Positions 2,942 through 18,728 of a DNA stretch of 18,728 nucleotides are shown piece after piece. Source of the DNA: a virus (Duplodnaviria; Heunggongvirae; Uroviricota; Caudoviricetes); IMG/VR virus record IMGVR_UViG_2654588181_000008, positions 1 through 18,728 of that record, one strand, 5' to 3'. A program made the translations under genes and the position numbers. The notes beneath the pieces were generated by a model that was not told the DNA's origin, searched no databases, and saw only the letters and a program-made list of their open reading frames with translations. Position 1 is the first letter of the stretch; every line of letters starts with the position of its first letter.

Positions 2942-2948
2942 GGTGCTT

Positions 2949-3245: not shown

Positions 3246-3340
3246 AGGATGGGACGTTTTTACGGGGAGAGCAGGTTAAAGAGACGATACGAAAAAATGT
3301 ATCTCCTCTTGAGCGTTACCGTAAGAACAAAGAACGATAG
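3116..3340 (+). CDS. Hypothetical early protein
   Basis: ATG 3116 with GGAGAAAG Shine-Dalgarno 6 nt upstream; 74 aa. Confidence 0.45.
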   Translation: MYAAESEVVYQFRYRGESYSVPEDDLLCCYPSLSGDGSYFFALKDGTFLRGEQVKETIRKNVSPLERYRKNKER

Positions 3341-3362
3341 CTGCGTTTGGGGGATATGAAGT

Positions 3363-3704: not shown

Positions 3705-3771
3705 CCAACTAATGAAATTAATGGCGTAAACCCGCCGGGTATCCCTTTATCTAAATTCAGGAGAATTGATT

Positions 3772-4005
3772 ATGCGTAATATTGAAACCCTCAAGACTAA
3801 AACCGGACCGGATGATGCAGGGCTTAATATTTTACTGACAGAGGCTCGTCTGGAAGAACGCCGGGCAAGGGCTGAAGCAATGGCAGCTCGCCTTGATAGC
3901 CTGGCGTGTCATATCACATCCCGCCAGCTAAACCACGTCGAAGCAGCAGAACTACTGCGTGTAACTGCTGAAGCAATCCAGAACGAAGCGCAGGAGATCC
4001 ACTAA
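3772..4005 (+). CDS. Hypothetical early protein
   Basis: ATG 3772 with AGGAG 8 nt upstream (track start 3766 is TTG); 77 aa; its stop overlaps the next start as TAATG. Confidence 0.55.
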   Translation: MRNIETLKTKTGPDDAGLNILLTEARLEERRARAEAMAARLDSLACHITSRQLNHVEAAELLRVTAEAIQNEAQEIH

Positions 4006-4232
4006 TGGCTGATGCAATGGATCTCGTACAGCAGCGCGTTGAAGAAGAACGCCAGCGCCATATCCGTGCTGCCCGTGCCAAAACGCCGGGCGTGTCCCGC
4101 GTGCTTTGCATTGAGTGTGAAGCGCCAATTCCGCCAGCACGCCGCCGCGCCATTCCAGGTGTGCAGCTTTGCATTACCTGTCAGGAAATCGCAGAGCTGA
4201 AAGGCAAACATTACAACGGAGGTGCTGTATGA
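4005..4232 (+). CDS. TraR/DksA-family C4 zinc-finger protein
   Basis: CIECEAPIP...CITCQE gives a CxxC-x17-CxxC arrangement typical of TraR/DksA-like phage proteins; ATG 4005 with AGGAG upstream. Confidence 0.65.
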   Translation: MADAMDLVQQRVEEERQRHIRAARAKTPGVSRVLCIECEAPIPPARRRAIPGVQLCITCQEIAELKGKHYNGGAV

Positions 4233-5086
4233 GCACCATCCTGAAATGGGCGGGAAATAAAACCGCCGTAATGTCCGAACTGAAAAAACATCTTCCAGCT
4301 GGCCCGCGACTGGTTGAACCTTTCGCGGGTTCCTGTGCTGTGATGATGGAGACGGATTATCCCAGCTATCTGGTTGCGGATATTAATCCTGATTTAATCA
4401 ACCTCTATAAAAAGGTTGCCGCTGATTGTGAATCGTTTATATCTCGCGCCAGAGTTTTATTTAAGGAAGCAAACAGGGAGGTGGCTTATTACAACATAAG
4501 GCAGGAGTTTAATTACTCAACTGAAATTACTGATTTCATGAAAGCGGTATATTTCCTGTATCTCAATCGTCACGGTTACCGTGGGTTATGTCGCTATAAC
4601 AAGAGCGGGCATTTCAACATTCCCTACGGTAATTATAAAAATCCGTATTTCCCTGAAAAAGAAATTCGCGCATTTGCAGAGAAAGCCCAACGAGCAACGT
4701 TTATCTGCGCCAGCTTTGATGAAACGCTGGCGATGTTGAAGGCGGGGGATGTGGTGTATTGCGATCCGCCGTATGACGGTACGTTTTCCAGCTATCACAC
4801 TGATGGTTTCACTGAAGATGACCAGTATCACCTGGCATCCGTTCTTGAACATCGGTCATCAGAAGGACATCCGGTCATTGTTTCTAACAGTGACACATCC
4901 CTGATCCGTTCGCTGTATCGCAATTTTACTCACCACTACATCAAGGCAAAACGCAGCATCGGCGTAGCAGCTGGTGAGAGTAAATCTGCAACAGAAATCA
5001 TCGCTGTTTCTGGGGCGCGCTGCTGGGTGGGATTTGATCCTTCGCGTGGCGTGGATAGTTCTGCCGTGTACGGAGTGCGTGCATGA
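4229..5086 (+). CDS. dam: DNA adenine methyltransferase, Dam (GATC) family
   Basis: [35 protein letters not shown] and VVYCDPPY motifs, near-colinear with E. coli Dam as I recall it. ATG 4229 with GGAGG upstream and ATGA overlap with the preceding ORF; the track start at 4169 is an upstream extension. Confidence 0.9.
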
Positions 5087-7497
5087 GCCATGCTGATATG
5101 AACAACTGCAGCGGCTTTAACGAGGCCGCCGCAGCATTCTCATGGAACAGCCCGAAAAAGGCGATTAACCCTTATCTGGACCCGGCGGAAGTTGCGCCGG
5201 TTTCTGCGCTTTCAAACCTGATCACTCTGTACGCTGCCGATAACAAGCAGGAACAACTGCGCCGCGAGGCACTGAGTGATCAGGTCTGGGAGCGTTATTT
5301 CTTTAATGAATCCCGTGATCCTGTCCAGCGCGAAATGGAGCAGGATAAGCTCATTAGCCGGGCAAAGCTGGTGCATGAGCAGCAGCGTTTTAATCCGGAC
5401 ATGGTCATACTGGCGGACGTTAACGCCCAGCCTTCCCATATCAGCAAGCCGCTGATGCAACGTATTGAATACTTCAGCAGCCTGGGCAGGCCAAAGGCTT
5501 ATTCCCGCTATTTGCGTGAGACGATTAAACCATGTCTGGAACGACTGGAGCATGTACGCGACAGCCAGCTATCTGCATCTTTTCGTTTTATGGCAAGCCA
5601 TGAAGGGCTGGACGGCCTGCTGATCTTGCCTGAAATGAGTCAGGATCAGGTGAAGCGCCTGTCTACCCTTGTTGCCGCGCATATGAGCATGTGCCTTGAT
5701 GCAGCTTGTGGTGATTTGTATGCCACCGATGACGTTAAGCCAGAAGAAATCCGCAAGACATGGGAAAGGGTGGCGGCGGAAACCCTGCGTCTGGATGTCA
5801 TCCCTCCTGCGTTTGAGCAACTCCGCCGGAAAAGAAACCGCCGTAAACCCGTACCCTATGAACTCATTCCGGGTTCGCTGGCGCGTATGTTGTGCGCCGA
5901 CTGGTGGTATCGGAAATTATGGAAGATGCGTTGCGAATGGCGGGAAGAGCAGTTGCGTGCTGTTTGCCTGGTCAGCAAAAAAGCATCTCCCTATGTCAGC
6001 TATGAAGCCGTGATGCATAAACGTGAGCAGCGCCGTAAGTCGCTGGAGTTTTTCCGTTCTCATGAACTGGTGAACGAAGACGGCGACACGCTGGATATGG
6101 AGGACGTGGTAAACGCCAGTAGTAGCAACCCGGCGCATCGCCGCAATGAGATGATGGCATGTGTTAAAGGTCTGGAGCTTATCGCGGAAATGCGCGGTGA
6201 CTGCGCCGTTTTCTACACCATCACCTGTCCGTCACGTTTCCATTCCACGCTAAATAACGGCAGGCCCAACCCGACTTGGACAAATGCGACGGTAAGACAA
6301 AGCAGTGATTATCTGGTCGGCATGTTTGCTGCATTTCGTAAGGCGATGTACAAAGCCGGATTGCGCTGGTATGGCGTGCGGGTGGCTGAGCCGCATCATG
6401 ACGGTACAGTTCACTGGCACCTGTTGTGTTTTATGCGCAAAAAAGATCGCCGCGCCATTACTGCTTTGTTGCGTAAGTTTGCCATTCGTGAAGACCGCGA
6501 GGAGCTGGGTAATAACACAGGACCACGCTTTAAGTCTGAGCTGATAAACCCGCGCAAAGGTACACCAACAAGCTACATCGCGAAATACATCAGTAAGAAC
6601 ATTGACGGGTGTGGTCTGGCTGGCGAGATCAGCAAGGAAACGGGTAAATCTCTGCGTGATAACGCTGAATACGTTAATGCCTGGGCGTCTCTGCATCGTG
6701 TTCAGCAATTCCGCTTCTTTGGCATTCCGGGGCGTCAGGCTTACCGTGAACTGCGATTGCTGGCTGGTCAGGCGGCAAGGCAACAGGGTGACAAAAAAGC
6801 AGGTGCGCCGGTACTGGATAACCCGCGCCTTGATGCCATTCTGGCTGCAGCTGATGCTGGTTGCTTTGCCACCTACATCATGAAGCAGGGCGGCGTACTG
6901 GTTCCCCGTAAATATCACCTCATCAGAACCGCTTATGAAATCAACGAAGAGCCGACCGCCTATGGCGATCACGGTATTCGTATTTATGGCATCTGGTCAC
7001 CCATTGCAGAGGGCAAGATCTGCACTCATGCAGTGAAGTGGAAAATGATCCGTAAAGCCGTTGACGTTCAGGAGGCGGCAGCCGACCAGGGCGCTTGCGC
7101 CCCTTGGACTCGTGGCAATAACTGTCCCCTTGCTGAAAATTTGAACCAACAAGGGAAAGACAAATCAGCTGATGGGGACTCCATAACGGATATTACCCGT
7201 ATGAATGACAAGGAGTTGCACGATTACCTGCACAGTATGAGCAAAAAAGAGCGCCGGGAACTGGCTGCAAGGTTACGCCAGGTGAAACCGAAACGGCGTA
7301 AAGACTACAAACAGCGAATTACAGACCATCAGCGACAGCAGCTCGTCTATGAGCTGAAGTCCAGGGGATTTGATGGCAGCGAGAAAGAAGTCGATTTGCT
7401 CCTTCGCGGCGGCAGTATTCCGTCAGGAGCAGGCCTGCGTATCTTCTATCGGAACCAGCGTCTGAAGGAAGATGATAAGTGGCGGAACCTGTATTAA
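5083..7497 (+). CDS. A: Replication initiation protein A (rolling-circle endonuclease, P2 gpA family)
   Basis: 804-aa ORF containing [17 protein letters not shown] and a catalytic-tyrosine region typical of P2 gpA-like proteins; ATGA overlap with dam at 5083-5086. Confidence 0.9.
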
Positions 7498-7566
7498 TTA
7501 CGCGGGTTAACAATTCGTGCTCTTAATAATGCCAGGCATATCAGGCCGATGAACGTAAAAAAACGT

Positions 7567-7609
7567 TTTACATCAGTAAGATTATTATATACTGTAAATA
7601 TAAACAGTA
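7567..7609 (+). promoter_or_regulatory. SOS-regulated promoter: sigma70-like -35 TTTACA (7567-7572) with a LexA box TACTGTAAATATAAACAGTA (7590-7609) over the -10 region
   Basis: Perfect CTGT-N8-ACAG dyad with an AT-rich spacer, 40 bp upstream of a strong AGGAGG ribosome-binding site and ATG 7650. Confidence 0.7.
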
Positions 7610-7649
7610 GTTATGCATACAGTATTGTTTTGGTGTCATAGGAGGAAAG

Positions 7650-7838
7650 ATGCAGGACTATTTTTTGGAGTCTTTGAAGCTCCAGCGCATTGATTTTTTT
7701 CTTAAGCTTGTAGCGGCTAGTGAGTGTAGTGATGAAGAGAAGGGGCTGGCTCTGCAGTGGGTTTCTGAACTGACAGATGAACTCATGGCAAAAATCAGAA
7801 GCCACGAATACAACCGCTCAATGGATGTCATCAGCTGA
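7650..7838 (+). CDS. SOS-controlled small protein, possibly the N-terminal part of a Tum-like antirepressor
   Basis: AGGAGG 4 nt upstream of ATG 7650; 62 aa; directly downstream of the LexA box and 10 nt before the DinI-like gene. Confidence 0.55.
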   Translation: MQDYFLESLKLQRIDFFLKLVAASECSDEEKGLALQWVSELTDELMAKIRSHEYNRSMDVIS

Positions 7839-7848
7839 GGTGACTTTT

Positions 7849-8082
7849 ATGCGCATTGAAATAATGATCGATAAAGAGCAGAAGATTAGCCAGTCTACCC
7901 TGGACGCCCTTGAATCCGAGCTTTACCGCAATCTGCGCCCCCTGTATCCCAAAACGGTAATTCGCATTCGCAAAGGTAGCTCTAACGGTGTGGAACTAAC
8001 CGGACTGCAACTGGATGAAGAAAGAAAACAAGTGATGAAAATTATGCAGAAGGTGTGGGAGGACGACAGCTGGCTGCATTAA
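7849..8082 (+). CDS. DinI-like protein (DinI/MsgA family)
   Basis: MRIEIMIDKEQKISQSTLDALESELYRNL...QKVWEDDSWLH aligns by eye with E. coli DinI (MRIEVTIAK...DALAGELSRR...QETWESADDW). GAGGTG upstream of ATG 7849. Confidence 0.8.
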   Translation: MRIEIMIDKEQKISQSTLDALESELYRNLRPLYPKTVIRIRKGSSNGVELTGLQLDEERKQVMKIMQKVWEDDSWLH

Positions 8083-8090
8083 GAAACGTT

Positions 8091-8126
8091 GCCCCCAGGA
8101 GGATTCATTCTGATGGGGGCTAGTTT
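8091..8126 (+). terminator. Putative hairpin terminator after the DinI-like gene
   Basis: GCCCCCA (8091-8097) and TGGGGGC (8114-8120) form a 7-bp GC stem with a 16-nt loop, followed by TAGTTT; the T tract is weak. Confidence 0.3.
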
Positions 8127-8488
8127 GGGTAACGAGTGAAACGAGGCGTAAGGTGGGCGGCCATTTTGATAAGTGATTGTACGATTTGTGTTGTGAGTTC
8201 AACGGGTCGATGCAACGCTATCCTTAATCAAGGGCACGTTGCTCATACCCATCGATGCAATGAAAATCCATACTCATGGGGAAGACCAGAATGTCCCTGC
8301 CTTTTTCATTTTGTTCAGCACATGCACTATGGCCATTGCCTTCCCAAGCTAGCTATCGTAATCACTCAGCGTCAGTAAACTACTGAAAAATTGTTTTACC
8401 TTGTATATCAATAATGCCAAATCATACCCAAAAAATAGAAAATAATTAGATCGACAGGCAGAAGGCAATGTGAATAATCTTAAAAACC

Positions 8489-8518
8489 TTGACTGCCAGT
8501 GAGGTTTGGTTCTATAAA
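8489..8518 (+). promoter_or_regulatory. Putative sigma70 promoter for darTG (TTGACT-N18-TATAAA)
   Basis: TTGACT at 8489-8494 and TATAAA at 8513-8518, about 30 nt upstream of the darT start. Confidence 0.4.
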
Positions 8519-8549
8519 TAGACTTACGACTTTGAAAGGATGAGTTGAA

Positions 8550-9131
8550 ATGAGCGAAAGGAAAAGAATTGAAGATCAGTATCTTCTCTATCATTTAACA
8601 TGTATGGATAATCTACCTAGTATTTTAGACACAGGATTAAGATCTCGTGCATCAGTAAAAGGTGAGTTTGTTGATGTGGCCGACGGTGAAATAATAACAG
8701 GACGCGAAGCATTAAATTTGCAAACAATGGTTCCTTTTCATTTCTTTACTAAGAATCCATTTGATGGAAGAGTCCTGAAAGATCATAAGGAAAAATCATT
8801 TTGTATTATTTCGGTTTGTCGGGCATTTGCCAAAGAAAATGGTTGGAAAGTTATCCCTAAACATCCATTATCCACCAGTTCTGTTATAGACCTCTTAGAT
8901 TATGAACAAGGAATGGCCCAAATTGACTGGGAGCTTATGAATATAAGGGATTATAAAAATGCAGAATGCAAATCTGTATGTATGGCTGAGTGTTTATCAA
9001 GTGTAACGGTCGAGCCGAAAAATTTCCATTGCATCTTTGTCAAAAATGATAACGAAAAAAAATATGTTGAAAGGTTGATAAAACAACAAGGATTAAGTAT
9101 ATTGATAACGATCAACACTTATATGTTCTAA
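8550..9131 (+). CDS. darT: DarT-like ssDNA ADP-ribosyltransferase toxin (DUF4433 family)
   Basis: N-terminal LLYHLTCMDNLPSILDTGLRS matches the DarT/DUF4433 signature (LYHxTh..NL.SIL..GL) as I recall it; a C-terminal AECL segment is a candidate for the catalytic glutamate. 193 aa, AT-rich, directly followed by a macrodomain gene. Confidence 0.8.
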   Translation: MSERKRIEDQYLLYHLTCMDNLPSILDTGLRSRASVKGEFVDVADGEIITGREALNLQTMVPFHFFTKNPFDGRVLKDHKEKSFCIISVCRAFAKENGWKVIPKHPLSTSSVIDLLDYEQGMAQIDWELMNIRDYKNAECKSVCMAECLSSVTVEPKNFHCIFVKNDNEKKYVERLIKQQGLSILITINTYMF

Positions 9132-9135
9132 TTCT

Positions 9136-10107
9136 ATGATTAAGTATGCAAGCGGAAATCTTCTAAACTCTACATCGCAAGCTCTTGTGAATGCTGTAAA
9201 CTGCCAAGGAGTCATGGGAAAGGGTATCGCTTTGGCTTTTAAAGAAACTTTTCCCTATAATTTCGAAGTTTATAAGAGAGCATGCGCCACTGGTACAATG
9301 AAAATTGGACAGGTTTTAATTGTAGAGGAAAAGGGAAAAATAATTGTAAACTTTCCCACTAAAGATAGTTGGAGAAAAAAATCAACATATGATTTCATCT
9401 CGCAAGGCCTTGAATCTTTAGCAAAAATTATAGACGAAAAAAAAATTACATCAATATCAATACCACCTTTAGGCTGTGGTAATGGGGGCCTCGATTGGAA
9501 TAAGGTTGAGGCTCTTATTTTAAAAACTTTTCAAAATTTAGATAATGTTGATGTGGTAATTTATCCGCCTGCAACTAACAATCAACTTTCAAAAAATAAA
9601 AATGTTATTAATGCTAAGCATCTTTTGGTTCACTACGCCTATGGAAAATTAAAAGTTAAGCAAAAATATTCCCTTTATACAGTTTTTTATATTTGCGAAT
9701 GTATTGAGAAAGCAAATCTTTTTTTATTCGATTTTAAACATGGTCGGCCATACTCTTCTGAGTTAGAAAATATTATGAAGGATATAGCAAACCTTAAAGT
9801 TGAGTTGCAAGGAGATTTTGATGCTTTTATTGAAGATTATATTAATACTCATCAATCCAAAGAGTTACAAACCGAGTTTGGTAAACTAATCTCAACTTTA
9901 AATCCAAGTATAAGTTTGCTCAATGCTCTTAAAAATAAGATTGATTATACAGATAGCGTATATGTGATTACGAGAATTGCTAAAGAAAAAGATCATGGCT
10001 TGCATATTGACAATTTCAAAGAATATGAAAATATTGTGCAGCATTTAATTAAAAATGGATTGGTAATCGAAGATATTTTTAACGAACTAAAAATAAAGGG
10101 AAGTTAG
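9136..10107 (+). CDS. darG: DarG-like antitoxin: N-terminal macrodomain (ADP-ribosyl hydrolase) plus C-terminal domain
   Basis: GNLLNSTSQALVNAVNCQGVMGKGIALAFKETFP and PPLGCGNGGLDW are classic macrodomain motifs; starts 4 nt after darT. 323 aa. Confidence 0.8.
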   Translation: MIKYASGNLLNSTSQALVNAVNCQGVMGKGIALAFKETFPYNFEVYKRACATGTMKIGQVLIVEEKGKIIVNFPTKDSWRKKSTYDFISQGLESLAKIIDEKKITSISIPPLGCGNGGLDWNKVEALILKTFQNLDNVDVVIYPPATNNQLSKNKNVINAKHLLVHYAYGKLKVKQKYSLYTVFYICECIEKANLFLFDFKHGRPYSSELENIMKDIANLKVELQGDFDAFIEDYINTHQSKELQTEFGKLISTLNPSISLLNALKNKIDYTDSVYVITRIAKEKDHGLHIDNFKEYENIVQHLIKNGLVIEDIFNELKIKGS

Positions 10108-10713
10108 TAGCGCTATTTTCAATTTTTTTGCTGAAATTGCGCATGCACACTCTCACGCATTATAGATGCGGCGTTAATCCCGCCAGGAGTGTTGTTTAAT
10201 AAATTGAACTATTTCTGCATTGAAGGATCAACTTACGCATTCGCTGACAACGCAGGCACTCTCCTGGCTAAGCAGAAATTCAGAGTAACCAACTGGCACT
10301 TTTACAACAATTTTATTATCAGTTGCGGCTCCATGACTTTCTGGTGGGATAACAAAGCAATTAAGGCGTGGTATTGTAAGTATCCCGCATAATCATGCTA
10401 GTAACATTTGTCCCCCATGTAACCTAATTAAGGCAACTTCCGCTCTTCGCTCACAGTGAACCTCCATGTTTGTAAACCCGTATATTTCGTTTTTTAAGTG
10501 GTCATTCAGATACGGATTTTCACTTCTCTTGGCTGTGCATGACTATGCTGCATGAAATTGCATGATCGTTTGAGGATCGTTTTTGCTGAGGCCCCCCAGA
10601 ACTGGCGGGCTTTCGCTTATGTCATGCAGGTGCATGAAAATCACTGCATAAAGCGGGCAGGCGTGGCGGGGATACGAGCGCGCGTTAAGCTTCTCACATC
10701 AAGTCCAAAGTTC

Positions 10714-10742
10714 TTGCAACCCAAAAAGCTTACCTTTATCTT
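10714..10742 (+). promoter_or_regulatory. Putative sigma70 promoter for the three-gene operon (TTGCAA-N17-TATCTT)
   Basis: Hexamers at 10714-10719 and 10737-10742, about 35 nt upstream of ATG 10778; the -10 match is imperfect. Confidence 0.3.
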
Positions 10743-10777
10743 TCAATGAGATTTGTCTGCAAAAGTAAGGAAATGAA

Positions 10778-11842
10778 ATGGCAGAGAATGGCCCTATTGA
10801 AGACTTAGCAAAACGCATTTCTAACGATCTTATGAGTCGTTTTAAGTGGCAACAGCATGGCCCCTGTGACCAAGATTTCTCTTGTGATAATGAAACAAAA
10901 CATAAGCCTGAAGGTAAAAAACAAAAGCACACACACCCAGTGGATGTGGTATTTAGTTATAAAGATCCATATTTAAATAAAATTATTTATTTAAATACTG
11001 ATTTGAAAAGTTATAAGGCTGGTTCTATTAATGCAACAAAGATAGAGTCTGCATTAGAGTCTTTAGCAAAAACAATTGATTGTGCTCGATATAGCCAGGA
11101 ATGGTCAGAAAAATATAACTTTTCTCAAATTGATTTCGAAGTTCGAGGTTTATTATTTGTTTTTAATCATGATAATCAATTGCAACATGATTTTTATGAT
11201 TTCTTTAATCCTCCTAAACCTACTAAAGGAAGGAGAGATAAGGCTGTAAACTTAGAAAAGATTCCGTTATGTGCTGGTCAGCAAATTCATATAATTGATC
11301 CATTTCTTATTAATTATATGTTGGCAGTAACGAATGATATGAATGACTTAATTGCAAAAAAAGAATTTCCAGATGAGGATTATGGATTCTATTATCCTCA
11401 ACTTATTTTCCATAAGGTTGCTGTAACTGAAAAATACCTTCCTGCAACTATTGAAGTTTTGTTATCACCATTTATGATTATTAAACATGGTCCTGTTTAT
11501 AAATTCAATAGGGCTAAAGGTATTGAGGAAATGGTTTATCCAGAGGGATTTGTTATATATTACAATAGAAAAGGTAATAGCGATAATGAATTCTTTTATT
11601 TGCTAGACTTGCTTTCTAATTATCAAATTTTAGATGGTATAAATAAAATTAGAATAAGATTGGCGTATCGTGAGAAAGATAATAGAGTTATGTCGCATTT
11701 TCAGCGTGGGATCGAAAAGTATGTTCATGAGTATGGACTGGATGAAGAGGCTAAAAAGAGACTTGAAGATCTGGATGTCAAAGTTGTCTCTACTGTAAAA
11801 GAATTCTTTTCTTCTGAGGTTATTTCTTGGGAGCCGAAATGA
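10778..11842 (+). CDS. Unknown protein A of three-gene cargo operon (354 aa); possible PD-(D/E)xK-type nuclease motif near the N-terminus
   Basis: ATG 10778 with AAGGAA Shine-Dalgarno. HPVDVVF...IIYLNTDLK fits the hhhD-x(n)-(D/E)xK pattern. No Walker A and no transmembrane segment. Stop overlaps the next start as ATGA. Confidence 0.8.
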   Translation: MAENGPIEDLAKRISNDLMSRFKWQQHGPCDQDFSCDNETKHKPEGKKQKHTHPVDVVFSYKDPYLNKIIYLNTDLKSYKAGSINATKIESALESLAKTIDCARYSQEWSEKYNFSQIDFEVRGLLFVFNHDNQLQHDFYDFFNPPKPTKGRRDKAVNLEKIPLCAGQQIHIIDPFLINYMLAVTNDMNDLIAKKEFPDEDYGFYYPQLIFHKVAVTEKYLPATIEVLLSPFMIIKHGPVYKFNRAKGIEEMVYPEGFVIYYNRKGNSDNEFFYLLDLLSNYQILDGINKIRIRLAYREKDNRVMSHFQRGIEKYVHEYGLDEEAKKRLEDLDVKVVSTVKEFFSSEVISWEPK

Positions 11843-12903
11843 AAAATATTCATAGTGTAACTGACAAGGCTTTATGTGATGCTTTGAATCAAAAGCAGAT
11901 TACATTAAATGAAATACAGGATCTTTTCTTGGAAAGAGGTACTATTATTTGTAAAAAAACCCCTAGAAAAGATCTAGCCAAAAACTACTCTCGGATGACT
12001 CATGATTATTATGAACATCAGAAGATAGCAACATTACTCGGAGGTCAGACAAGAGCTGAAAAAAATACATGTGTAAGAATTGAATCTAGTGTCACTAAGG
12101 ACGATATCATAGTGGCAGCAGAGAAGTTAAAAAAAGAAATAACTGCTCAGGATGATTATTGTAAAATTATTATTGATGGTTCTCGAGTTCTTATAGATAT
12201 AAGATATCTATCGACCAATTATAGTAAAAGCGATTTTAAGCAGGCTGTAAATAAAGAAGCTTTAATTGAAATCGAGCCTATTGATAAAGGTTATAGCATC
12301 CGTCGTCCCGATAACGAGAATCTCAAAGATTATGAAGATCTCCTCCTCGGGCATATAATTTCGATTCAGAGTGAACAAGATAATGACAGTAATCTTGATT
12401 TAAAATTAAACGAAATTACTCTTGCTCATAATAGCTCCGCAGATGTTAGGACACTGTTTTTCGATAAATTAATCCGTAGCCTAGATGGATATGAATTAGA
12501 CGATGTTACGGATGCTTATGTATATCATCCAAAACCTGAAACAATAGAAGCAGAAGAGGGAAATACTGAAACTGGAGTTCATGTGTCAAAAGCATCTCTG
12601 AAAGGAGAGGGAGTTCTTAAATCTGATGAACTTAGTGATCTTTATGATAGGGGCTTTTATATCTGGAAAATAAAATGGAAGGTTAAAGAGAAACTAGCAG
12701 ACCCAGATATTTATGAACTCGAAGCTCAATTCGGAGATCCACTAAACTGTACTAATTTTTCATATTTAGTAAAAGGAGTGAAAAAATATAAGTCTAACGG
12801 TCAATATTTCAGTAAACCTCAAAAGCTTTCAGCTAGAGAAACCGATAGATTTAATAAATTAATTGAAAATAGAGCTTATTCTATTATAATGGAAATTAGC
12901 TAA
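11839..12903 (+). CDS. Unknown protein B of three-gene cargo operon (354 aa)
   Basis: ATG 11839 with GGGAG 5 nt upstream, coupled to gene A by the ATGA overlap (track start 11827 is TTG). No recognisable motifs; acidic and soluble. Confidence 0.8.
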   Translation: MKNIHSVTDKALCDALNQKQITLNEIQDLFLERGTIICKKTPRKDLAKNYSRMTHDYYEHQKIATLLGGQTRAEKNTCVRIESSVTKDDIIVAAEKLKKEITAQDDYCKIIIDGSRVLIDIRYLSTNYSKSDFKQAVNKEALIEIEPIDKGYSIRRPDNENLKDYEDLLLGHIISIQSEQDNDSNLDLKLNEITLAHNSSADVRTLFFDKLIRSLDGYELDDVTDAYVYHPKPETIEAEEGNTETGVHVSKASLKGEGVLKSDELSDLYDRGFYIWKIKWKVKEKLADPDIYELEAQFGDPLNCTNFSYLVKGVKKYKSNGQYFSKPQKLSARETDRFNKLIENRAYSIIMEIS

Positions 12904-12922
12904 TTCATCATAAGGAGTGGAT

Positions 12923-13618
12923 ATGTCACAGTTAAGATTAAAGTGGATGAGATTAAAGATCAGAACCAGTTCTGAAGCGATCTTTGATTTTATCAAAAAC
13001 ACCCCTTATTCTGATGCTATTGGTGCTGGTTTTACTAAGTTTGAAACTATTCACAATGGAATATCTGCGACTTTTAATAAAAAAACTATAATGTTGGAGC
13101 CAGTTTCTGATCCATTTGGTGATATTTTAGAGTTCGAAAGGATTGTTTTTGAACAGATTGGTTTTTCTATCCAAACATTAAGTAATAAATTATGTTTGTT
13201 GACTTTTTATAATCCTCCAAAGACAGTTAAGTCTTTTATTGATTTCTTGTCAAAAGGTGAAGGGGTAAATGTTGCCTATGGAAACTTGACGGTAGATCTC
13301 AAGGCTTTTATGAAAATAATTAGGGAGGAGTTTGGAGTCAAAGTCTTCGCCATCTCAAAGGTGAAAGTTTCAAATGTTCCTGTTACTGATAAAACAAGGG
13401 CGTGTTTAGAGCTGAATTCTAGTGGAGATGCTCTAAATGATTTGAAAAAATTTGTTTTGGATAATGATTTTAAACTCGATAAAATAAAAGTTGGGGGGCT
13501 ATATCATGACTCTAAATTTAGCTTTGAACTAACTAGTGGAGCCTCGGCAATAATTCCTGAAGAACATGTGTCGGTCTTTAATGATGCTATTTCTTATATG
13601 GAGCTTGCTAAATTTTAA
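12923..13618 (+). CDS. Unknown protein C of three-gene cargo operon (231 aa)
   Basis: ATG 12923 with AAGGAG 7 nt upstream (track start 12917 is GTG); 19 nt after gene B; followed by a strong hairpin terminator. Confidence 0.8.
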   Translation: MSQLRLKWMRLKIRTSSEAIFDFIKNTPYSDAIGAGFTKFETIHNGISATFNKKTIMLEPVSDPFGDILEFERIVFEQIGFSIQTLSNKLCLLTFYNPPKTVKSFIDFLSKGEGVNVAYGNLTVDLKAFMKIIREEFGVKVFAISKVKVSNVPVTDKTRACLELNSSGDALNDLKKFVLDNDFKLDKIKVGGLYHDSKFSFELTSGASAIIPEEHVSVFNDAISYMELAKF

Positions 13619-13625
13619 AATGTAG

Positions 13626-13660
13626 AGGGTGCCATTGCTTAAATGATGGCACCCTATTTT
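13626..13660. terminator. Rho-independent hairpin terminator, likely bidirectional
   Basis: AGGGTGCCAT (13626-13635) pairs with ATGGCACCCT (13646-13655), a 10-bp stem with a 10-nt loop, followed by ATTTTT. It sits between the convergent three-gene operon and the portal remnant. Confidence 0.6.
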
Positions 13661-13665
13661 TAAAA

Positions 13666-14316
13666 TTAGTTTATATCGTCAAATGTATATTTCATAAATT
13701 GCATGACATGGTCGCCTATCCATTCGTTTAGTTCTTTAATTCTTTGTTGTAGAGGCGTTAACTCATTACGTACAAAGACACGGCTTGCCTTCTCCACATC
13801 CCCAAAACCCCCAACATTATTAGGCATTATCCCCATCATCTGTGGCGGAACGCGATGTGCTGCCATCATGTCATCGCGGCTGACATTTTTGATATTCAGA
13901 AACTCATCCTTCGCCGCAACTTCTGACAAAGGGATGATCTGAAGGCCGTCCTTTTTGCCGTTAGGCGAGTACATAAACAGGTTGCGGAAGTTGCCTGGAC
14001 CTTTGGCGCTTTTCATCGCGTTGCGGAGGTTGTTCACGTCCTCCTGGTTCTGCGCAGCGTCGGTCATGTACATGATGAAGCCAGCATGACTGCCGTTAAT
14101 GTAATACTTTCGACGGAACAGCGTGGCAGACTCATTGAGCAGGGCGGACGGAATGGCAGAAAGATAGCCGGGCAGGCCGTAGATCTCCTGGTTAATGTCC
14201 GGTTCCATCAGATGAAAAATGCTGCCTTTCGTGAACTGATACGGCTGGGTTGTCATACCGTATTGCACAAACCAGTAGGTATTGCCTTCTGGATCACTCG
14301 TAACCAGATGGCGCAA
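13666..14316 (-). pseudogene. Q: Portal protein (P2 gpQ-like) remnant, N-terminally truncated
   Basis: 216-aa minus-strand ORF; the portal assignment rests mainly on position and orientation (first late gene, leftward, as in P2), and intact P2 Q is about 340 aa. No ATG start: the first in-frame codon is TTG, and it abuts the lysB start with an 11-nt gap. Confidence 0.55.
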
Positions 14317-14327
14317 CAGGTAGCAGC

Positions 14328-14756
14328 ATGAACCGGTTGCTGCTGGTTGTGCTGGCGTTATTACTGGCGTCGCTGGGCTGGCAGACGTGGCGGCTGGCTG
14401 ATGCCAGCCAGACCATCAGCACGCAGGCAGACGAGCTGCGGAGCAAAAGTCAGGCACTGGCAAAGAGCAACAGCCAGCTTATCAGCCTGTCCATTCTGAC
14501 TGAAACCAATAACCGGGAGCAGGCGCGGCTCTATGCCGAAGCAGAACAGACCAGCGCGCTGCTGAGACAACGACAACATCGGATTGAGGAACTGAAACGT
14601 GAGAACGAGGATTTACGCCGCTGGGCTAATACTCCTTTGCCTGCTGACATTATCCGGCTGCGGGAACGTCCGGCACTCACCGGAGGTGCAGCTTACCGTC
14701 AGTGGTTGTCCGCGAGTGACGCCGTGTCAGCTGGATCAGGCAGCGCCACACAATAA
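14328..14756 (+). CDS. lysB: LysB-like i-spanin (Rz-like)
   Basis: N-terminal transmembrane segment LLLVVLALLLASLGW followed by charged coiled-coil-like sequence; an overlapping lipoprotein ORF is embedded in another frame. Confidence 0.7.
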   Translation: MNRLLLVVLALLLASLGWQTWRLADASQTISTQADELRSKSQALAKSNSQLISLSILTETNNREQARLYAEAEQTSALLRQRQHRIEELKRENEDLRRWANTPLPADIIRLRERPALTGGAAYRQWLSASDAVSAGSGSATQ

Positions 14757-14889
14757 CGGTGATCTGAACGCATTGCTGGATGAAACGGAGGCCGCCTGGG
14801 CGGTCTGTGCAGACAAAGTGGACATGATTATTGCGTGTCAGGAGCGAAACAGTGAACAAACCACAATCCCTGCGCCACGCCCTCAATAA
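14599..14889 (+). CDS. lysC: LysC-like o-spanin (Rz1-like outer-membrane lipoprotein)
   Basis: Signal peptide MRTRIYAAGLILLCLLTLSGC with lipobox LSGC; overlaps lysB out of frame, the typical Rz/Rz1 arrangement. The start is GTG, so the exact start is uncertain. Confidence 0.6.
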   Translation: MRTRIYAAGLILLCLLTLSGCGNVRHSPEVQLTVSGCPRVTPCQLDQAAPHNNGDLNALLDETEAAWAVCADKVDMIIACQERNSEQTTIPAPRPQ

Positions 14890-15199
14890 AGCGGTGCCTT
14901 ATGTCCGTAATAACCCGGACAAACTGCATCTGTTTGTGGATAACGGTTCGCTGGTTGCCACCGGGGCCAGCTCCATGTCATGGGAGTACCGCTACACCCT
15001 GAACGTGGTGATTGAAGATTTCAGCGGCGACCAGAATCTGCTGATGGCCCCGGTTTTGCTGTGGCTGCGGGATAACCAGCCTGATGCCATCAATAACCCG
15101 ACGTTACGGGAAAAGCTATTCACATTTGAGGTGGATATTCTGCGCAACGATGTCTGTGATATCAGCCTGAACCCGAGAAGAAAGAAAGCACCACGGTGA
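14852..15199 (+). pseudogene. R: Tail completion protein R (P2 gpR-like), C-terminally truncated
   Basis: NKPQSLRHALNKAVPYVRNNPDKLHLFVDNGS...LLWLRDNQPD resembles the P2 gpR N-terminal two-thirds as I recall it; ends early after about 115 aa with an unrelated basic tail. GTG start with AGGAG upstream. Confidence 0.5.
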
Positions 15200-15564
15200 A
15201 GCGTAAGCGCAGGACTAAGAAGCAGAAGAAAGAGCCGGAAGCGAAGCAGGGCGATTACCTGGTGGGTACGGATGAAAACGTGCTGGTACTTAATCGCACT
15301 TATGCCAACCGGAGCAACGCCGAACGAGCGGCGAAAATGCAGTGGGAACGCCTGCAACGCGGCGTTGCGTCATTCTCGCTACAACTGGCAGAAGGTCGGG
15401 CAGATCTCTACACGGAAATGCCTGTGAAGGTCAGTGGCTTTAAACAGCCGATAGATGATGCGGAATGGACCATTACCACCCTGACGCATACTGTCAGCCC
15501 GGATAACGGTTTTACGACCAGTCTGGAGCTTGAAGTGAAGATTGATGATTTCGAAATTGAATGA
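15196..15564 (+). pseudogene. D: C-terminal fragment of tail protein D (P2 gpD-like)
   Basis: ORF ending ...VKVSGFKQPIDDAEWTITTLTHTVSPDNGFTTSLELEVKIDDFEIE directly upstream of ogr, where the D C-terminus sits in P2. No ATG start (GTG overlapping the R-fragment stop). Only about 120 aa against roughly 390 for an intact D. Confidence 0.45.
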
Positions 15565-15654
15565 TTCTTCGCAATGGAGAACTTTTAAGTTTTCAAAATG
15601 GAATAATGCGGTATCATTATTGTGAATTTAGCAAAAATGGGGAGAACTCGAAAA

Positions 15655-15873
15655 ATGATGATTTGCCCACTGTGTGGAAGTGCCGCCCATACTCGCAGCA
15701 GTTTTCAGGTATCTTCATTGACCAAAGAGCGTTACAACCAGTGCCAGAACATTAACTGCAGCCATACTTTTGTTACCCATGAAACTTTTGTTCGTTCGAT
15801 TGCAACGCCAAAAGAGTCAAATCCGGTTCAGCCGCATCCAATGAAATCAGGACAGGTGGCGCTCTCTCTTTGA
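15655..15873 (+). CDS. ogr: Ogr/Delta-family zinc-finger late transcription activator
   Basis: 72-aa product MMICPLCGSAAHTRSSF...KERYNQCQNINCSHTF... with the CxxC-x22-CxxxxC pattern and strong resemblance to P2 Ogr as I recall it; ATG 15655 (track start 15622 is an upstream extension). Confidence 0.9.
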   Translation: MMICPLCGSAAHTRSSFQVSSLTKERYNQCQNINCSHTFVTHETFVRSIATPKESNPVQPHPMKSGQVALSL

Positions 15874-15950
15874 CTCTGCCGCCAATTTGTCGCCATCGTT
15901 AAAAAACACTGCTTCTAACATCATGATTTTAAAAGGCATAAATTTCAGGC

Positions 15951-15996
15951 AACAAAAAACCCATCAACCTTGAACCGAAATGGCGGGGTTGATGGG
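15951..15996 (-). terminator. Rho-independent terminator of ybjL
   Basis: CCCATCAACC (15960-15969) pairs with GGTTGATGGG (15987-15996); an A run on the plus strand at 15951-15959 gives a T run after the hairpin on the minus strand, downstream of ybjL. Confidence 0.5.
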
Positions 15997-16108
15997 CTCC
16001 ACAAAATGGGGACATCAAAGAAAAGCAGTGGCACTAATTAAGACTGATGCCCTGCGGAAAAGTTCTGCGGTTGTGCAAAAAAATTTCATTTTCAGGGCAA
16101 CTTCAGTT

Positions 16109-17794
16109 TTATCCTAATCCTGGCCATACCATGACGATGATTGTCCCTGCCAGCGTCAGCAGGACGTTGGCGATTGCATAGGTGCCCGCATAGCCCAGCG
16201 CCGGGATGTTACTGCGAGCTGTATCACTGATGATCTCCATTGCCGGCGCGCAGGTACGTGCGCCCATCATTGCGCCGAACAACAGTGCGCGGTTCATTCG
16301 CAATACATAAGCACCGAACAAGAAACAGATAACCACGGGCACCAGACTGACAATCAATCCGGCAATCAACATCTGACCGCCAATCGCGCCCAGGCCGTTA
16401 TTAATACCGCTACCGGCGCTCAGACCAACGCCTGCCATAAACACCATCAAGCCGAACTCTTTCACCATGCTTAATGCACCTTGCGGAATGTAACCGAAGG
16501 TCGGGTGGTTAGCACGCATAAAGCCCAGCATAATTCCGGCGAATAACAACCCGGCAGCGTTCCCCATGCCGAAACTGAATGTGCTGAACTGGAAGGTGAT
16601 CATCCCGATCATCAGCCCAATAACAAAGAAGGCGCAAAATGCCAGCAGGTCAGTGACCTGGCTGTGAATCGAGATAAAGCCGATGCGATCGGCGATGGTT
16701 TTTACGCGACGGGCATCACCGCTGACTTGTAAAACGTCACCTTTGTTAAGCACGACGTTGTCATCTATCGGCATCTCAATCTGGCTACGAATGACGCGGT
16801 TAAGGAAGCAACCGTGATCGGTCAACTTCAGTTGTGCGAGACGTTTACCTACAGCGTTATGGTTTTTAACGACCACTTCTTCAGTGACGATACGCATGTC
16901 GAGAAGGTCACGATCGAAAACTTCTTTACCGTTACGGAAGCTGGGATCGAGTCGGGCATGGGCGTCGGGATAGCCTACCAACGCTATTTCATCGCCCATT
17001 TGTAGCACGGCATCACCGTCTGGATTTGCCAGAATCCCGTTACGTCGAATACGTTCAATGTAGCAGCCGGTTTGTCGATAAATACCCAGTTCACGCAGAT
17101 TTTTGCCGTCGGTCCAGGCCACCAGCTCCGGGCCGACGCGATAGGCGCGGATCACCGGTAAATAAACCTTACGGTTGGCATCAGTGTCCAGGCCACGTTC
17201 GCGGGCGATTTGCTGGGCGCTGGTCTGTAAGTCCTGATGCTGCAATTTCGGCAAGTAACGCGCACCAACAATCAAACTCACCAGACCGATTAAATAGGTT
17301 AAGGCATACCCGAGGCTCAGATTATCCAGTGCCAGTGAGAGCTGCCTGCTTTCCATGCCGGAATGACGCAGTGTATCGCCAGCACCGACCAGAACCGGTG
17401 TCGACGTCATAGAGCCTGCTAACATACCGGCCGTCAGGCCAATATCCCAGCCAAACAGCTTACCTAACCCTAAGGCGATCACCAGCGCACTGCCAACCAT
17501 CACCAGTGCTAACATTAGGTAATTTTTCCCATCGCGAAAAAAAATGGAAAAAAAGTTCGGTCCGGCTTCGACCCCGACGCAGAAAATAAACAGCATAAAG
17601 CCAAGATTAAGCGCATCGGTGTTAATGCTGAAATGTTGTTGGCCTAATAACAGCGATACGACTAAAACGCCAATGGAATTACCCAGTTGGATCGAACCAA
17701 GTCGTAACTTTCCGAGACATAGCCCAAGCGCGAGGACCACAAATAATAACAGAATGTAATTCCCATTTAACAATTCGGCGACGTTTATATTCAC
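16109..17794 (-). CDS. ybjL: Putative transport protein YbjL (two-domain membrane transporter with central TrkA-C-like domains)
   Basis: 561-aa polytopic membrane protein beginning [29 protein letters not shown]..., recognised as E. coli YbjL; GTG start. Confidence 0.85.
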
Positions 17795-18063
17795 GGAGGC
17801 TAACTTCTTGTTTACTAGTAAGCTGTTGAAAGAAATGGTAATTTACGATAATGTTTTTTACCAGAATTCAGGGCGCAGATTCATTCAGCGCACCTAAACG
17901 ATAGTAAAGTAACAATATATTTTACTAGTGTAATCACATTAGGTATCAACGGCTATATGAATTGCGTTGGCCTATATTAGCATGGAATGCGAAGCGGCTT
18001 TATCTTACTGAACGCCACACTGGCGAAAAATGTGTTCGATAGACGCAGTGTCAGGAGGAACGA

Positions 18064-18441
18064 GTGAAACATAAACAACGTTGGGCGGGGGCAATCTGCT
18101 GTTTTGTCCTCTTCATTGTGGTGTGCCTTTTTCTGGCGACGCACATGAAAGGCGCTTTTCGGGCTGCCGGGCATCCTGAAATCGGCTTGCTATTTTTCAT
18201 TCTTCCTGGAGCAGTGGCCAGCTTCTTTTCACAGCGTAGAGAAGTCCTGAAACCTCTGTTTGGCGCAATGCTGGCGGCACCCTGTTCGATGCTCATTATG
18301 CGGCTGTTTTTTTCACCGACGCGCTCATTCTGGCAAGAGCTGGCATGGTTACTAAGCGCGGTGTTCTGGTGTGCGCTGGGGGCACTGTGTTTCTTATTTA
18401 TCAGTAGTTTGTTTAAACCACAGCACAGAAAAAATCAGTAA
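18064..18441 (+). CDS. ybjM: Inner membrane protein YbjM
   Basis: 125-aa hydrophobic protein MKHKQRWAGAICCFVLFIVVCLFLATH..., consistent with E. coli YbjM and the ybjL-ybjM-grxA gene order. Confidence 0.8.
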   Translation: MKHKQRWAGAICCFVLFIVVCLFLATHMKGAFRAAGHPEIGLLFFILPGAVASFFSQRREVLKPLFGAMLAAPCSMLIMRLFFSPTRSFWQELAWLLSAVFWCALGALCFLFISSLFKPQHRKNQ

Positions 18442-18460
18442 AGCCCTCAACGCGAGGGCT
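18442..18460. terminator. Hairpin between convergent ybjM and grxA, likely grxA terminator
   Basis: AGCCCTC (18442-18448) pairs with GAGGGCT (18454-18460) around a 5-nt loop; a T run follows on the minus strand (plus-strand A run 18430-18435). Confidence 0.5.
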
Positions 18461-18470
18461 TGTCAGACGA

Positions 18471-18728
18471 TCAGGCGTCCAGATTTTCTTTCACCCATGC
18501 AGCAAAATCGGTATAGCCGCCGATATGTTGCTGATCGACAAAAATCTGCGGCACGGTTTCTACGGGTTTACCTGCCTTTTGTTGTAGATCTTCTTTAGTG
18601 ATCCCTTCCGCACGAATATCTACATACTGATACTGAAAATCATCGCGTTCATTGCTCAATTTCTCAGCCAGATCTTTTGCACGCACACAGTAAGGGCAAC
18701 CCGAACGACCAAAAATAACGGTTTGCAT
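18471..18728 (-). CDS. grxA: Glutaredoxin 1
   Basis: 85-aa product MQTVIFGRSGCPYCVRAKDLAEKL... with the CPYC active site, recognised as E. coli GrxA; start codon is at the window edge (18726-18728). Confidence 0.9.
   Translation of the reverse strand: MQTVIFGRSGCPYCVRAKDLAEKLSNERDDFQYQYVDIRAEGITKEDLQQKAGKPVETVPQIFVDQQHIGGYTDFAAWVKENLDA

Follow-up and report, generated by a model that had tools for sequence, protein, structure and literature searches.

A tightly packed operon of three genes in a P2/186-like prophage is, judging from the homology of its proteins, a diverged copy of 3HP (Rst_3HP; Hp1-Hp2-Hp3), a catalogued defence system of P2-like prophages for which anti-phage activity has been tested in the homologue pFR109. 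The operon was analysed within a window of 18,728 nucleotides (i.e., the whole stretch of DNA considered here, positions 1 to 18,728 of IMG/VR virus record IMGVR_UViG_2654588181_000008), and all coordinates refer to this window (Table 1). That the operon belongs to the 3HP family of defence systems appears virtually certain. With regard to its mode of action, the best explanation overall is that this diverged 3HP member probably acts in the manner of GAPS4, to which it would be related, but with three subunits.

Assignment to 3HP is based on matches of all three proteins, in gene order, to the corresponding PADLOC models (Hp1, PDLC03004, 1.2e-64; Hp2, PDLC03005, 1.5e-39; Hp3, PDLC03006, 1.1e-10), as well as on BLASTP comparisons with the pFR109 proteins, which yielded near full-length alignments with 36% (1e-68), 30% (8e-42), and 23% (5e-12) identity for A, B, and C, respectively. 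These data bear out an earlier proposal, made in a first-pass annotation, that the three genes represent a defence operon in a P2 cargo hotspot. pFR109 is a three-gene system ("hp + hp + hp") of E. coli E1114 without predicted domains, which protects E. coli against P1 from its native promoter and was reported to be active against P1 only, of eight phages (Rousset et al. 2022, PMC9122126); DefenseFinder lists this system as Rst_3HP. Both operons comprise three co-directional genes of like order and sizes (333/359/227 aa in pFR109 vs 354/354/231 aa here), every protein pair is homologous over its full length, and both are located at the cos-proximal gpA-portal hotspot of P2-like prophages. By contrast, the limited identities place the operon described here in a separate subclade, and anti-phage activity has been demonstrated for pFR109, while the operon in the window is known from sequence alone. 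A literature search for the mechanism of 3HP retrieved catalogue-type mentions only, with no mechanistic paper found.

Table 1. Features of the 3HP operon and its surroundings in the window.
Feature	Position	Strand	Details
Replication endonuclease gpA	5083-7497		Flanks the operon locus
DarT	8550-9131		Confirmed
DarG	9136-10107		Confirmed
cos-like packaging-site region of P2/186-like prophage	10536-10685	.	Includes GGCGTGGCGGGGATACGAGCGCGCG; directly upstream of the operon
Weak promoter candidate	10714-10742	+	By eye, 8/12: TTGCAA 10714-10719, 17-nt spacer, TATCTT 10737-10742; below consensus-scan threshold
Shine-Dalgarno-like AAGGA	10767-10771		3' of the weak promoter candidate, 5' of A
Gene A (Hp1)	10778-11842	+	354 aa; ATG 10778, TGA 11840-11842; WP_073508629.1; predicted effector nuclease
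GapS4a-like PD-(D/E)xK nuclease domain of Hp1	10817-11404	+	Residues 14-209
Hp1 motif, H53-P54-x-D56	10934-10945
Hp1 motif, D75-L76-K77	11000-11008
A/B overlap	11839-11842		ATGA
Gene B (Hp2)	11839-12903	+	354 aa; ATG 11839, TAA 12901-12903; WP_073508628.1; predicted DNA-binding scaffold or sensor
Internal promoter-like site	12863-12890		Before C; near-consensus, 11/12 (consensus scan)
Ribosome-binding site of C	12912-12917	+	AAGGAG, 5 nt 5' of the C ATG (read from sequence)
Gene C (Hp3)	12923-13618	+	231 aa; ATG 12923; WP_073508627.1; smaller protein of predicted RdgC-like fold
Intrinsic terminator	13626-13665	+	12-bp stem at 13626-13655, 6 G-C pairs, 6-nt loop, then ATTTTTAAAA, with ATTTTT right after the stem; closes the operon
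Portal fragment	13666-14316	-	Flanks the operon locus

The layout of the operon agrees with the first-pass description of a packed three-gene unit, in which A and B overlap by ATGA, a gap of 19 nt separates the B stop from the C ATG, a ribosome-binding site precedes C, and a strong terminator follows it. Starts at TTG or GTG, which would lengthen the products slightly (358 and 233 aa), were also present in the open reading frame listing; it is the ATG starts that agree with the homologues. Chance open reading frames were ruled out by conservation, with hundreds of homologues for all three, and by conserved synteny. The GC contents of A, B, and C (0.320, 0.330, and 0.333) vs that of the backbone gene gpA (0.527) likewise conform to the suggested AT-rich cargo beside darTG, the operon having a GC content of ~0.32 against 0.53 in the backbone. 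None of the three proteins contains a Walker A motif, and their maximal 19-residue Kyte-Doolittle hydropathy does not exceed 1.0, indicating that they lack membrane segments, as had also been noted. By contrast, the upstream promoter that had been postulated was not recovered, as a consensus scan of the + strand upstream of A (10100-10777) found none and the candidate discerned by eye is weak.

The operon adjoins darTG at the gpA-portal cargo hotspot of the P2/186-like prophage and is intact although its carrier is a prophage remnant without head genes. When the cloned pFR109 fragment is read in reverse complement, its upstream part shares ~85% identity with the cos-like region, which is also related to the P2 cos segment GGCGAGGCGGGGA and probably contains the native promoter region. 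While the operon in the window lies on the portal side of cos, its counterparts in E1114 and Klebsiella phage ST437-OXA245phi4.1 are found on the gpA side and point the opposite way. In E. coli, where this subclade is present in 11 of 5426 complete genomes, the cassette is always located at the gpA-portal hotspot, with variable neighbours (i.e., darTG, ComF plus a hypothetical protein, or two hypothetical proteins). Across ~80 genome loci, most had none of the P2-like markers sought (portal, terminase, gpA, integrase, DinI) within ~6 kb, and the cassette is also carried by filamentous Pf-like phages.

Comparison of genome loci showed that the three genes are strictly co-conserved as a unit, always in A-B-C order, in ~80 genomes, in answer to a check proposed by the first-pass annotation. 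A, B, and C are adjacent in 76 of 82 sources, with C detected in 76 loci after one profile iteration, and the exceptions are on contigs that are short or that end there; wherever the contig permits, A and B lie side by side. B was found without C in only two loci, L038, whose contig stops directly behind B, and L018, a short contig of 2.9 kb with a truncated or split B. Mean pairwise identity across the same 73 loci declines from 0.43 for A to 0.33 for B and 0.21 for C, a gradient in line with A as effector, B as scaffold, and C as a sensing or gating subunit that evolves fast.

For Hp1, the PD-(D/E)xK-like pattern noticed initially was confirmed by conservation, as none of the 73 diverse loci deviates at H53, P54, D56, D75, K77, N130, or D132; D56, D75, and K77 appear to form, in all 73 loci, the D ... 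(D/E)-x-K triad by which the PD-(D/E)xK superfamily is recognised. The NCBIfam model for GapS4a (NF047933) matched Hp1 at 3.7e-10 over profile positions 15-196 of 302, with a score (39.5 bits) that falls far under the curated cut-off of 270 and with a match that spans the nuclease domain only. The same model matched 51 of 66 Hp1 family members (best, 8.5e-16), all under the cut-off, and no other family was matched. By sequence, Hp1 is thus a distant homologue of GapS4a rather than a member of this family. Precomputed annotations support this relationship, with PF26115 assigned to all homologues of A among the 120 matches listed and the UniRef name "GAPS4 PD-(D/E)XK nuclease domain-containing protein" given to five of the listed homologues; in one genome, PGAP named the Hp1 protein a "PD-(D/E)XK nuclease domain-containing protein". 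In PHROGs, A corresponds to phrog_7059, and all PHROGs matches were to families of unknown function. PD-(D/E)xK domains include some that cut RNA and others that just bind nucleic acid; we consider it likely that Hp1 is a catalytic nuclease effector. Another family to be mentioned here is PF08878, which we take to be the HamA/DUF1837 family. In a published HHpred table, Hp1 weakly matches this entry, printed as "Cap4_SAVED", with 83% probability (Rousset et al. 2022, PMC9122126).

With regard to Hp2, the GapS4b model (NF047934; family cut-off, 300 bits) did not match the protein encoded here, but it matched 19 of 75 Hp2 family members (best, 2.4e-9), colinearly from the N-terminus, and other NCBIfam families had at most two matches each among these 75 members. 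No GapS4b-matching member was found when NCBIfam was searched with the ten most divergent database homologues of B, whereas B proteins from genome loci did match. NCBIfam searches with 53 Hp3 proteins gave no match, and GAPS4 has no counterpart of Hp3. Hp3 is the fastest-evolving subunit. Searched by profile against 1.84 billion representatives, it proved to belong to a large family (461 clusters at 50% identity), and the 150 matches listed include neither longer nor fused forms that might point to a function.

Structure predictions indicate that Hp2 and Hp3 have an RdgC-like fold. In the Hp2 model, two alpha/beta modules placed as in RdgC occupy residues 76-353 and follow an N-terminal four-helix domain (residues 1-66); confidence in the Hp3 model is low, chiefly past residue 135. 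Hhalign detected no relationship between Hp2 and Hp3 and gave a probability of <1% for either protein against E. coli RdgC, Foldseek searches did not return RdgC among the matches listed (TM-scores of ~0.2), and Pfam searches at E values up to 1 found no domain in A, B, or C, including RdgC (PF04381), in a Pfam set that did not contain PF26115. Sequence-profile searches of the PDB with A, B, and C similarly yielded nothing below an E value of 0.6. The predicted likeness of Hp2 and Hp3 to RdgC is therefore at the fold level only, with sequence signal absent, and the TBP-like/KA1 module beneath the RdgC-like fold is a common fold. Proteins with RdgC-type folds form homo- or heterodimers that bind DNA, and RdgC itself surrounds DNA as a ring. 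Description of the three proteins as unrecognisable, as in the first-pass annotation, consequently needs revision, given the relation of A and of the B family to GapS4a and GapS4b and the predicted RdgC-like fold of B and C.

GAPS4, the parallel for Hp1 and Hp2, is an a2b2 complex with a ring built by its b subunits ("ring-like" in the wording of the preprint) and has been described as a non-selective DNase with a DNA-break trigger, an abortive outcome, and broad protection; GAPS4a carries the motif HGxD-SxK, in which D59A abolishes defence (Mahata et al., bioRxiv 10.1101/2025.09.07.674715). Hp1 resembles GAPS4a in its N-terminal non-canonical PD-(D/E)xK domain, with HPxD...DxK in place of HGxD...SxK, such that the spacing and the H, D, and K residues are kept while P stands in place of G and D in place of S. 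Among Hp2 family members, the matches to GapS4b are colinear and the lengths equal, the gene for the known or predicted nuclease precedes that for its partner in both systems, and GAPS4b is ring-forming while Hp2 is predicted to have the fold of a ring-former. The systems differ in that GAPS4 is encoded by two genes or a fused single gene whereas 3HP has an obligatory third gene, Hp3, and in that DNase activity, DNA-break trigger, and a2b2 stoichiometry were demonstrated for GAPS4, to which 3HP is likened from sequence.

Other systems offer more partial parallels. RdgC (PDB 2OWL), a recombination-associated and nucleoid-associated protein of E. coli, differs from Hp2 and Hp3 in that no sequence similarity between them was detected, in the additional N-terminal helical domain of Hp2, and in being a housekeeping homodimer without a nuclease partner. 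In lambda RexAB, a prophage exclusion system, RexA is the half that binds DNA and acts as sensor, but its partner, RexB, is a membrane effector and not a nuclease. In the kinetochore pair Iml3-Chl4 (cf. CENP-L-CENP-N), two distinct proteins of RdgC-type fold form a DNA-gripping heterodimer. Hachiman (HamA) and Shedu follow the same logic of a PD-(D/E)xK effector activated by DNA ends or aberrant DNA, a point made by the authors of the GAPS4 study (bioRxiv 10.1101/2025.09.07.674715); however, the Hachiman sensor is a helicase, Shedu is a self-contained tetramer, and the homology of both to Hp1 seen here extends as far as the nuclease superfamily.

These comparisons suggest a model in which Hp1 would be the effector, a GAPS4a-type PD-(D/E)xK DNase with D56, D75, and K77 as its catalytic residues, and Hp2 would be its GapS4b-like partner, with alpha/beta modules arranged as in RdgC, whose dimer rings DNA. 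The conserved N-terminal helical domain of Hp2 would probably dock Hp1, and Hp3 may close or gate the ring by pairing with Hp2, as in Iml3-Chl4 and CENP-L-CENP-N, or may tune what is sensed. Upon infection, the Hp2/Hp3 module would bind free DNA ends or other abnormal DNA and, once DNA-bound, would release Hp1 for sequence-nonspecific DNA cutting, so that phage replication would be halted, probably with loss of the infected cell. The analysis establishes family membership, coupling and strict co-conservation of the genes, the invariant nuclease motif, and the relationships in sequence and fold. For 3HP we infer that the proteins form a complex, sense DNA, respond to the proposed trigger, and cut DNA, with an abortive outcome; ring formation and any pairing of Hp2 with Hp3 are conjecture. 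The full GAPS4-like model, including an RdgC-like ring, strikes us as a serious candidate that falls slightly short of being probable. A more specific version, in which 3HP represents an elaborated GAPS4 that has exchanged the symmetric GAPS4b homodimer ring for an asymmetric ring or horseshoe of two distinct RdgC-fold proteins, Hp2 and Hp3, much like the Iml3-Chl4 heterodimer on centromeric DNA, with the very fast-evolving Hp3 as a gate selecting the DNA structure or phage counter-measure that opens the ring and fires Hp1, is speculative and rather doubtful.

An alternative reading also has Hp1 as the nuclease effector but proposes toxin-antitoxin-like control, in which Hp2 and/or Hp3 restrain Hp1 until a specific phage protein frees it and the RdgC-like fold serves as a scaffold only. 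A generic DNA-break sensor would be expected to act more broadly than the tested homologue, for which protection against one of eight phages was reported, considering the broad protection by GAPS4; the very fast evolution of Hp3 is a usual trait of subunits in contact with phage proteins, and exclusion by RexA has no strict need for DNA binding. Separate, antitoxin-like expression of Hp3 could be provided by the internal promoter-like site before C; however, this site is kept in close relatives only, and 11/12-type promoter matches occur at chance frequency in such AT-rich DNA. With Hp1 and Hp2 related to GAPS4a and GAPS4b, for which neither a protein trigger nor escape mutants were found (bioRxiv 10.1101/2025.09.07.674715), and with the RdgC-type fold family being DNA-binding, we regard a protein trigger as unlikely.

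It is far less probable that the operon serves the phage's own DNA metabolism, with RdgC-like proteins modulating RecA or recombination, a nuclease acting near cos, and exclusion as a side effect. While the operon abuts cos in both known arrangements and RdgC is a modulator of recombination and replication restart, the lack of the P2-like markers sought around most loci, carriage by filamentous Pf-like phages, in which DNA handling is entirely different, and use of the E. coli site as a variable cargo slot, swapped with other defence genes, all argue against such a function, as do retention of the operon in a remnant that lost its head genes and protection by a homologue cloned alone. The initial proposal of an undescribed anti-phage system of unrecognisable proteins has next to no chance of being correct. 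Lack of Pfam domains, the RefSeq label "hypothetical" for A, B, and C, and a 2024 survey that lists Rst_3HP without a known domain family are in its favour, but all three proteins are confidently homologous to a characterised system, through their matches to the PADLOC 3HP models and their full-length homology to the pFR109 proteins, and the Hp1 and Hp2 families are related to GAPS4a and GAPS4b. Standard tools such as PADLOC and DefenseFinder would label the operon as 3HP rather than as a new system.

What is new are the links of Hp1 to GAPS4a, of the Hp2 family to GAPS4b, and, at the level of predicted fold, of Hp2 and Hp3 to RdgC, which together offer a testable idea of how 3HP acts. These links also suggest a common larger family for 3HP and GAPS4, with cassettes carried by P2-like myophages and Pf-like filamentous phages. 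If the reading of 3HP as an elaborated GAPS4 were true, the RdgC-type DNA-ring fold would connect 3HP, GAPS4, and RexA and would be a means of sensing foreign or broken DNA that recurs in bacteria.

The three-gene operon was described in the first-pass annotation as a candidate undescribed anti-phage system of unrecognisable proteins. However, the PADLOC models Hp1, Hp2, and Hp3, which represent a three-hypothetical-protein system (3HP; named Rst_3HP in DefenseFinder), match proteins A, B, and C in this order (1.2e-64, 1.5e-39, and 1.1e-10, respectively). Rousset et al. (2022; PMC9122126) examined P2-like prophages at their gpA-gpQ hotspot, and Table S2A of that study contains the "hp + hp + hp" sequences from E. 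coli E1114 carried on plasmid pFR109; A, B, and C align with these counterparts over essentially their full length at 36%, 30%, and 23% identity (1e-68, 8e-42, and 5e-12), respectively. Together, these matches and alignments identify the operon, on sequence grounds, as a divergent representative of a defence system that is already catalogued and validated by experiment, and 3HP membership held on every point that could be tested. In the literature searched, 3HP is found in catalogue mentions only, and a 2024 survey could not assign Rst_3HP to any known domain family.

Features of the operon and of its surroundings in the window
Feature	Position	Strand	Remarks
Replication gene gpA	5083-7497
DarT	8550-9131		upstream of A-B-C
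DarG	9136-10107		upstream of A-B-C
Gene A (Hp1)	10778-11842	+	354 aa
Gene B (Hp2)	11839-12903	+	ATG start at 11839 overlaps the stop of A as ATGA; 354 aa
AAGGAG ahead of gene C	12912-12917	+
Gene C (Hp3)	12923-13618	+	ATG start, 19 nt past the stop of B; 231 aa
Hairpin and T-run 3' of gene C	13626-13665		12-bp G+C-rich stem
Portal fragment	13666-14316	minus	P2/186-like prophage
gpR fragment	14831-15199		after lysB junction
gpD C-terminal fragment	15196-15564
Ogr	15622-15873
Host permease gene	16109-17794	minus	beyond Ogr

The operon block lies between gpA and the portal fragment of a P2/186-like prophage. The three co-directional ORFs, their sizes, the overlap, the intergenic gap, and the AAGGAG site are exactly as originally annotated; the claimed terminator is present as a hairpin followed by a T-run, the AT-richness is borne out by a GC content of 0.32-0.33 in A, B, and C vs. 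0.53 in adjacent gpA, neither a Walker A motif nor a hydrophobic membrane segment was found in A, B, or C, and the cargo position beside darTG is supported by DarT and DarG upstream. An upstream promoter had also been claimed, but a consensus scan of the + strand from 10100 to 10777 found none; the best candidate by eye (TTGCAA-17-TATCTT, 10714-10742) matches only 8 of 12 positions. A near-consensus sigma-70 promoter-like site (12863-12890; TTGAAA, 16-nt spacer, TATAAT; 11/12) falls in the 3' end of gene B, just 5' of gene C; it is conserved in an E. coli relative (82% identity) but not in Buttiauxella or Xenorhabdus, and could either be chance in AT-rich DNA or provide separate expression of Hp3. 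With regard to DarG, a start at 9136, 5 nt past the DarT stop, is possible and yields 323 aa, and alignments of the PADLOC DarG profile and the Pfam Macro domain to this protein begin at residues 1 and 18, respectively; the RefSeq protein (WP_074568486.1) begins approx. 78 nt later (window ~9214), a start that would cut into the macro domain and looks too short.

A cos-like packaging site (GGCGTGGCGGGGATACGAGCGCGCG; 10536-10685) is located 93 nt upstream of gene A; cos thus separates the window operon, on its portal side, from darTG, on its gpA side. A cos-like region also precedes the first gene of the operon in pFR109, where the operon has the reverse orientation and occupies the gpA side, as is apparently also the case in Klebsiella phage ST437-OXA245phi4.1 (L086). 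A small ORF (10552-10749), labelled hypothetical or pseudogene in RefSeq, is probably spurious because it overlies the cos-like sequence. The window prophage is, as seen at 13666-15873, a deletion remnant in which darTG and 3HP are still intact; its portal gene is reduced to the C-terminal 216 codons, and at ~14280 the sequence jumps to lysB, so that ~6.7 kb carrying head and lysis genes is lost, which the intact prophage of NZ_CP182383 still has (L084 14583-21278).

The window variant of the cassette was found in 11 of 5426 complete E. coli genomes (five at at least 99% identity, six at 80-82%), always adjoining the portal gene of a P2/186-like prophage. The neighbouring cargo is darTG, a ComF-family protein with a hypothetical protein, or two small hypothetical proteins, and the cassette therefore behaves as an independent module. 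In a prophage of E. coli PEC178 with the same 3HP variant, a "SNIPE associated domain-containing protein" (L001 1839-3515) lies between the integrase and CI genes, a second cargo slot whose window equivalent (~1210-1448) has small ORFs only. When one genome per species was scanned with A, 149 relatives were found, from which 80 loci were kept. Most of these belong to Gamma- and Betaproteobacteria, while Acidobacteria, Verrucomicrobia, and a cyanobacterial MAG contribute a few; the ORFs of the 80 loci were searched with profiles. B is directly downstream of A in every locus where the contig permits, and C, counted after one profile iteration, is directly downstream of B in 76 sources, so the A-B-C order is kept, as the proposed co-occurrence check called for. 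B without C was seen only in L038, where the contig stops just past B, and in L018, a short 2.9-kb contig with B truncated or split. Most loci had no P2-like marker (portal, terminase, gpA, integrase, DinI) within ~6 kb. The triad is also found in Klebsiella Peduoviridae and in filamentous Pf-like Pseudomonas phages, and the module thus moves between completely unrelated phage types. The Pf-like carriers, including Pseudomonas phage 99-2 (L085 6992-9889, OR621024.1; Hp1 39% identity) and OR621021.1, are 13-kb filamentous phages (Tubulavirales) of P. aeruginosa with the cassette at the end, beside repressor and excisionase genes.

A PD-(D/E)xK-like pattern had been noted in protein A, and this hint proved well founded. 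Across 73 diverse loci, residues H53, P54, D56, D75, K77, N130, and D132 never vary, giving the motif HPxD...(18 residues)...DxK; the NCBIfam antiphage model GapS4a matches residues 14-209 of window Hp1 (3.7e-10) and 51 of 66 Hp1 family members (best 8.5e-16), which matched no other family. Among the matches listed, 120/120 Hp1 homologues carry Pfam PF26115, several are named "GAPS4 PD-(D/E)XK nuclease domain-containing protein" in UniRef, and in one genome PGAP labels the window protein itself a PD-(D/E)XK nuclease-domain protein. The GapS4a score of Hp1 is 39.5 bits vs. a curated cut-off of 270, which marks Hp1, as judged from profile scores, as a distant GapS4a homologue rather than a family member.

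Window Hp2 matched no family and did not itself reach GapS4b, the NCBIfam model of the GAPS4a partner; among 75 diverse Hp2 proteins, 19 matched GapS4b (best 2.4e-9; any other family, at most two), colinearly from the N-terminus (e.g., residues 13-234 vs. profile positions 2-237 of 355). An AlphaFold2 model from 68 sequences was confident (pLDDT 85, pTM 0.73) and predicts two alpha/beta modules preceded by an N-terminal domain of four helices. Its fold matches include CENP-L, Iml3, Chl4, and CENP-N, with Chl4 and CENP-N the top Foldseek hits (E 4e-4, probability 1.0, low TM-scores). For Hp3, no family library recognised the protein and the structure model is weak past residue 135; a word-index search returned close homologues only, and a full profile search returned 461 clusters at 50% identity. 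Obvious fragments aside, the matches listed are ~200-238 aa, with no longer, fused form among them. The family combines extreme diversity with near-constant length, keeping an N-P-P-(K/R) motif (N97-K100) and a few glycines. Over the 73 loci used for the Hp1 motif, pairwise identity averages 0.43 (A), 0.33 (B), and 0.21 (C), making Hp3 the fastest-evolving subunit. Sequence-profile comparisons of B with C, and of either with RdgC, gave no signal, and their relationship is, according to the models, at the fold level only.

The RexA structure paper assigns RdgC, RexA, Iml3, and Chl4 to one DNA-binding fold, which dimerizes via an extended beta-sheet, homo- or heterodimerically, and forms in RdgC a ring with a basic pore encircling DNA. 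Mahata et al. (bioRxiv 10.1101/2025.09.07.674715) reported that GAPS4a and GAPS4b co-purify as an a2b2 complex, modelled with two b subunits as a ring and the nucleases docked on the b helical domains; that DNA breaks (as shown by nalidixic acid sensitisation) trigger GAPS4, which degrades the DNA of both phage and host and has an abortive outcome; and that GAPS4a is defined by an N-terminal non-canonical motif, HGxD-SxK, in which mutation of the aspartate abolishes defence. Neither 3HP nor RdgC is mentioned in the GAPS4 papers. Putting these fold properties and findings together, we propose that 3HP may be a three-subunit relative of GAPS4, in which Hp2, with or without Hp3, would assemble into a ring or horseshoe resembling RdgC, detect DNA ends or aberrant DNA arising in infection, and thereby license the Hp1 DNase. 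Of the three subunits, Hp3 evolves fastest and lacks a GAPS4 counterpart; it is the strongest candidate for a role in gating or specificity. The Hp1 motif retains the H, D, and K residues of the GAPS4a motif, with P in place of G and D in place of S. At the sequence thresholds that define the GAPS4 and RdgC families the operon falls outside both, while the resemblance is informative.

The main rival explanation, which we consider unlikely, retains Hp1 as nuclease effector and makes Hp2 and Hp3 inhibitors that are released by a phage protein; two observations agree with this reading, namely that the homologue which was tested is reported to have a narrow spectrum (P1 only) and that Hp3 evolves rapidly. 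The GAPS4-like reading builds on the 3HP membership, gene coupling, co-conservation, invariant catalytic motif, and sequence and fold relationships observed for the operon, from which we infer complex formation, DNA binding, a trigger, DNase activity, and an abortive outcome for 3HP. While the 3HP system itself was already known, what is new here is a mechanistic hypothesis that would connect 3HP with both GAPS4 and the RdgC fold.
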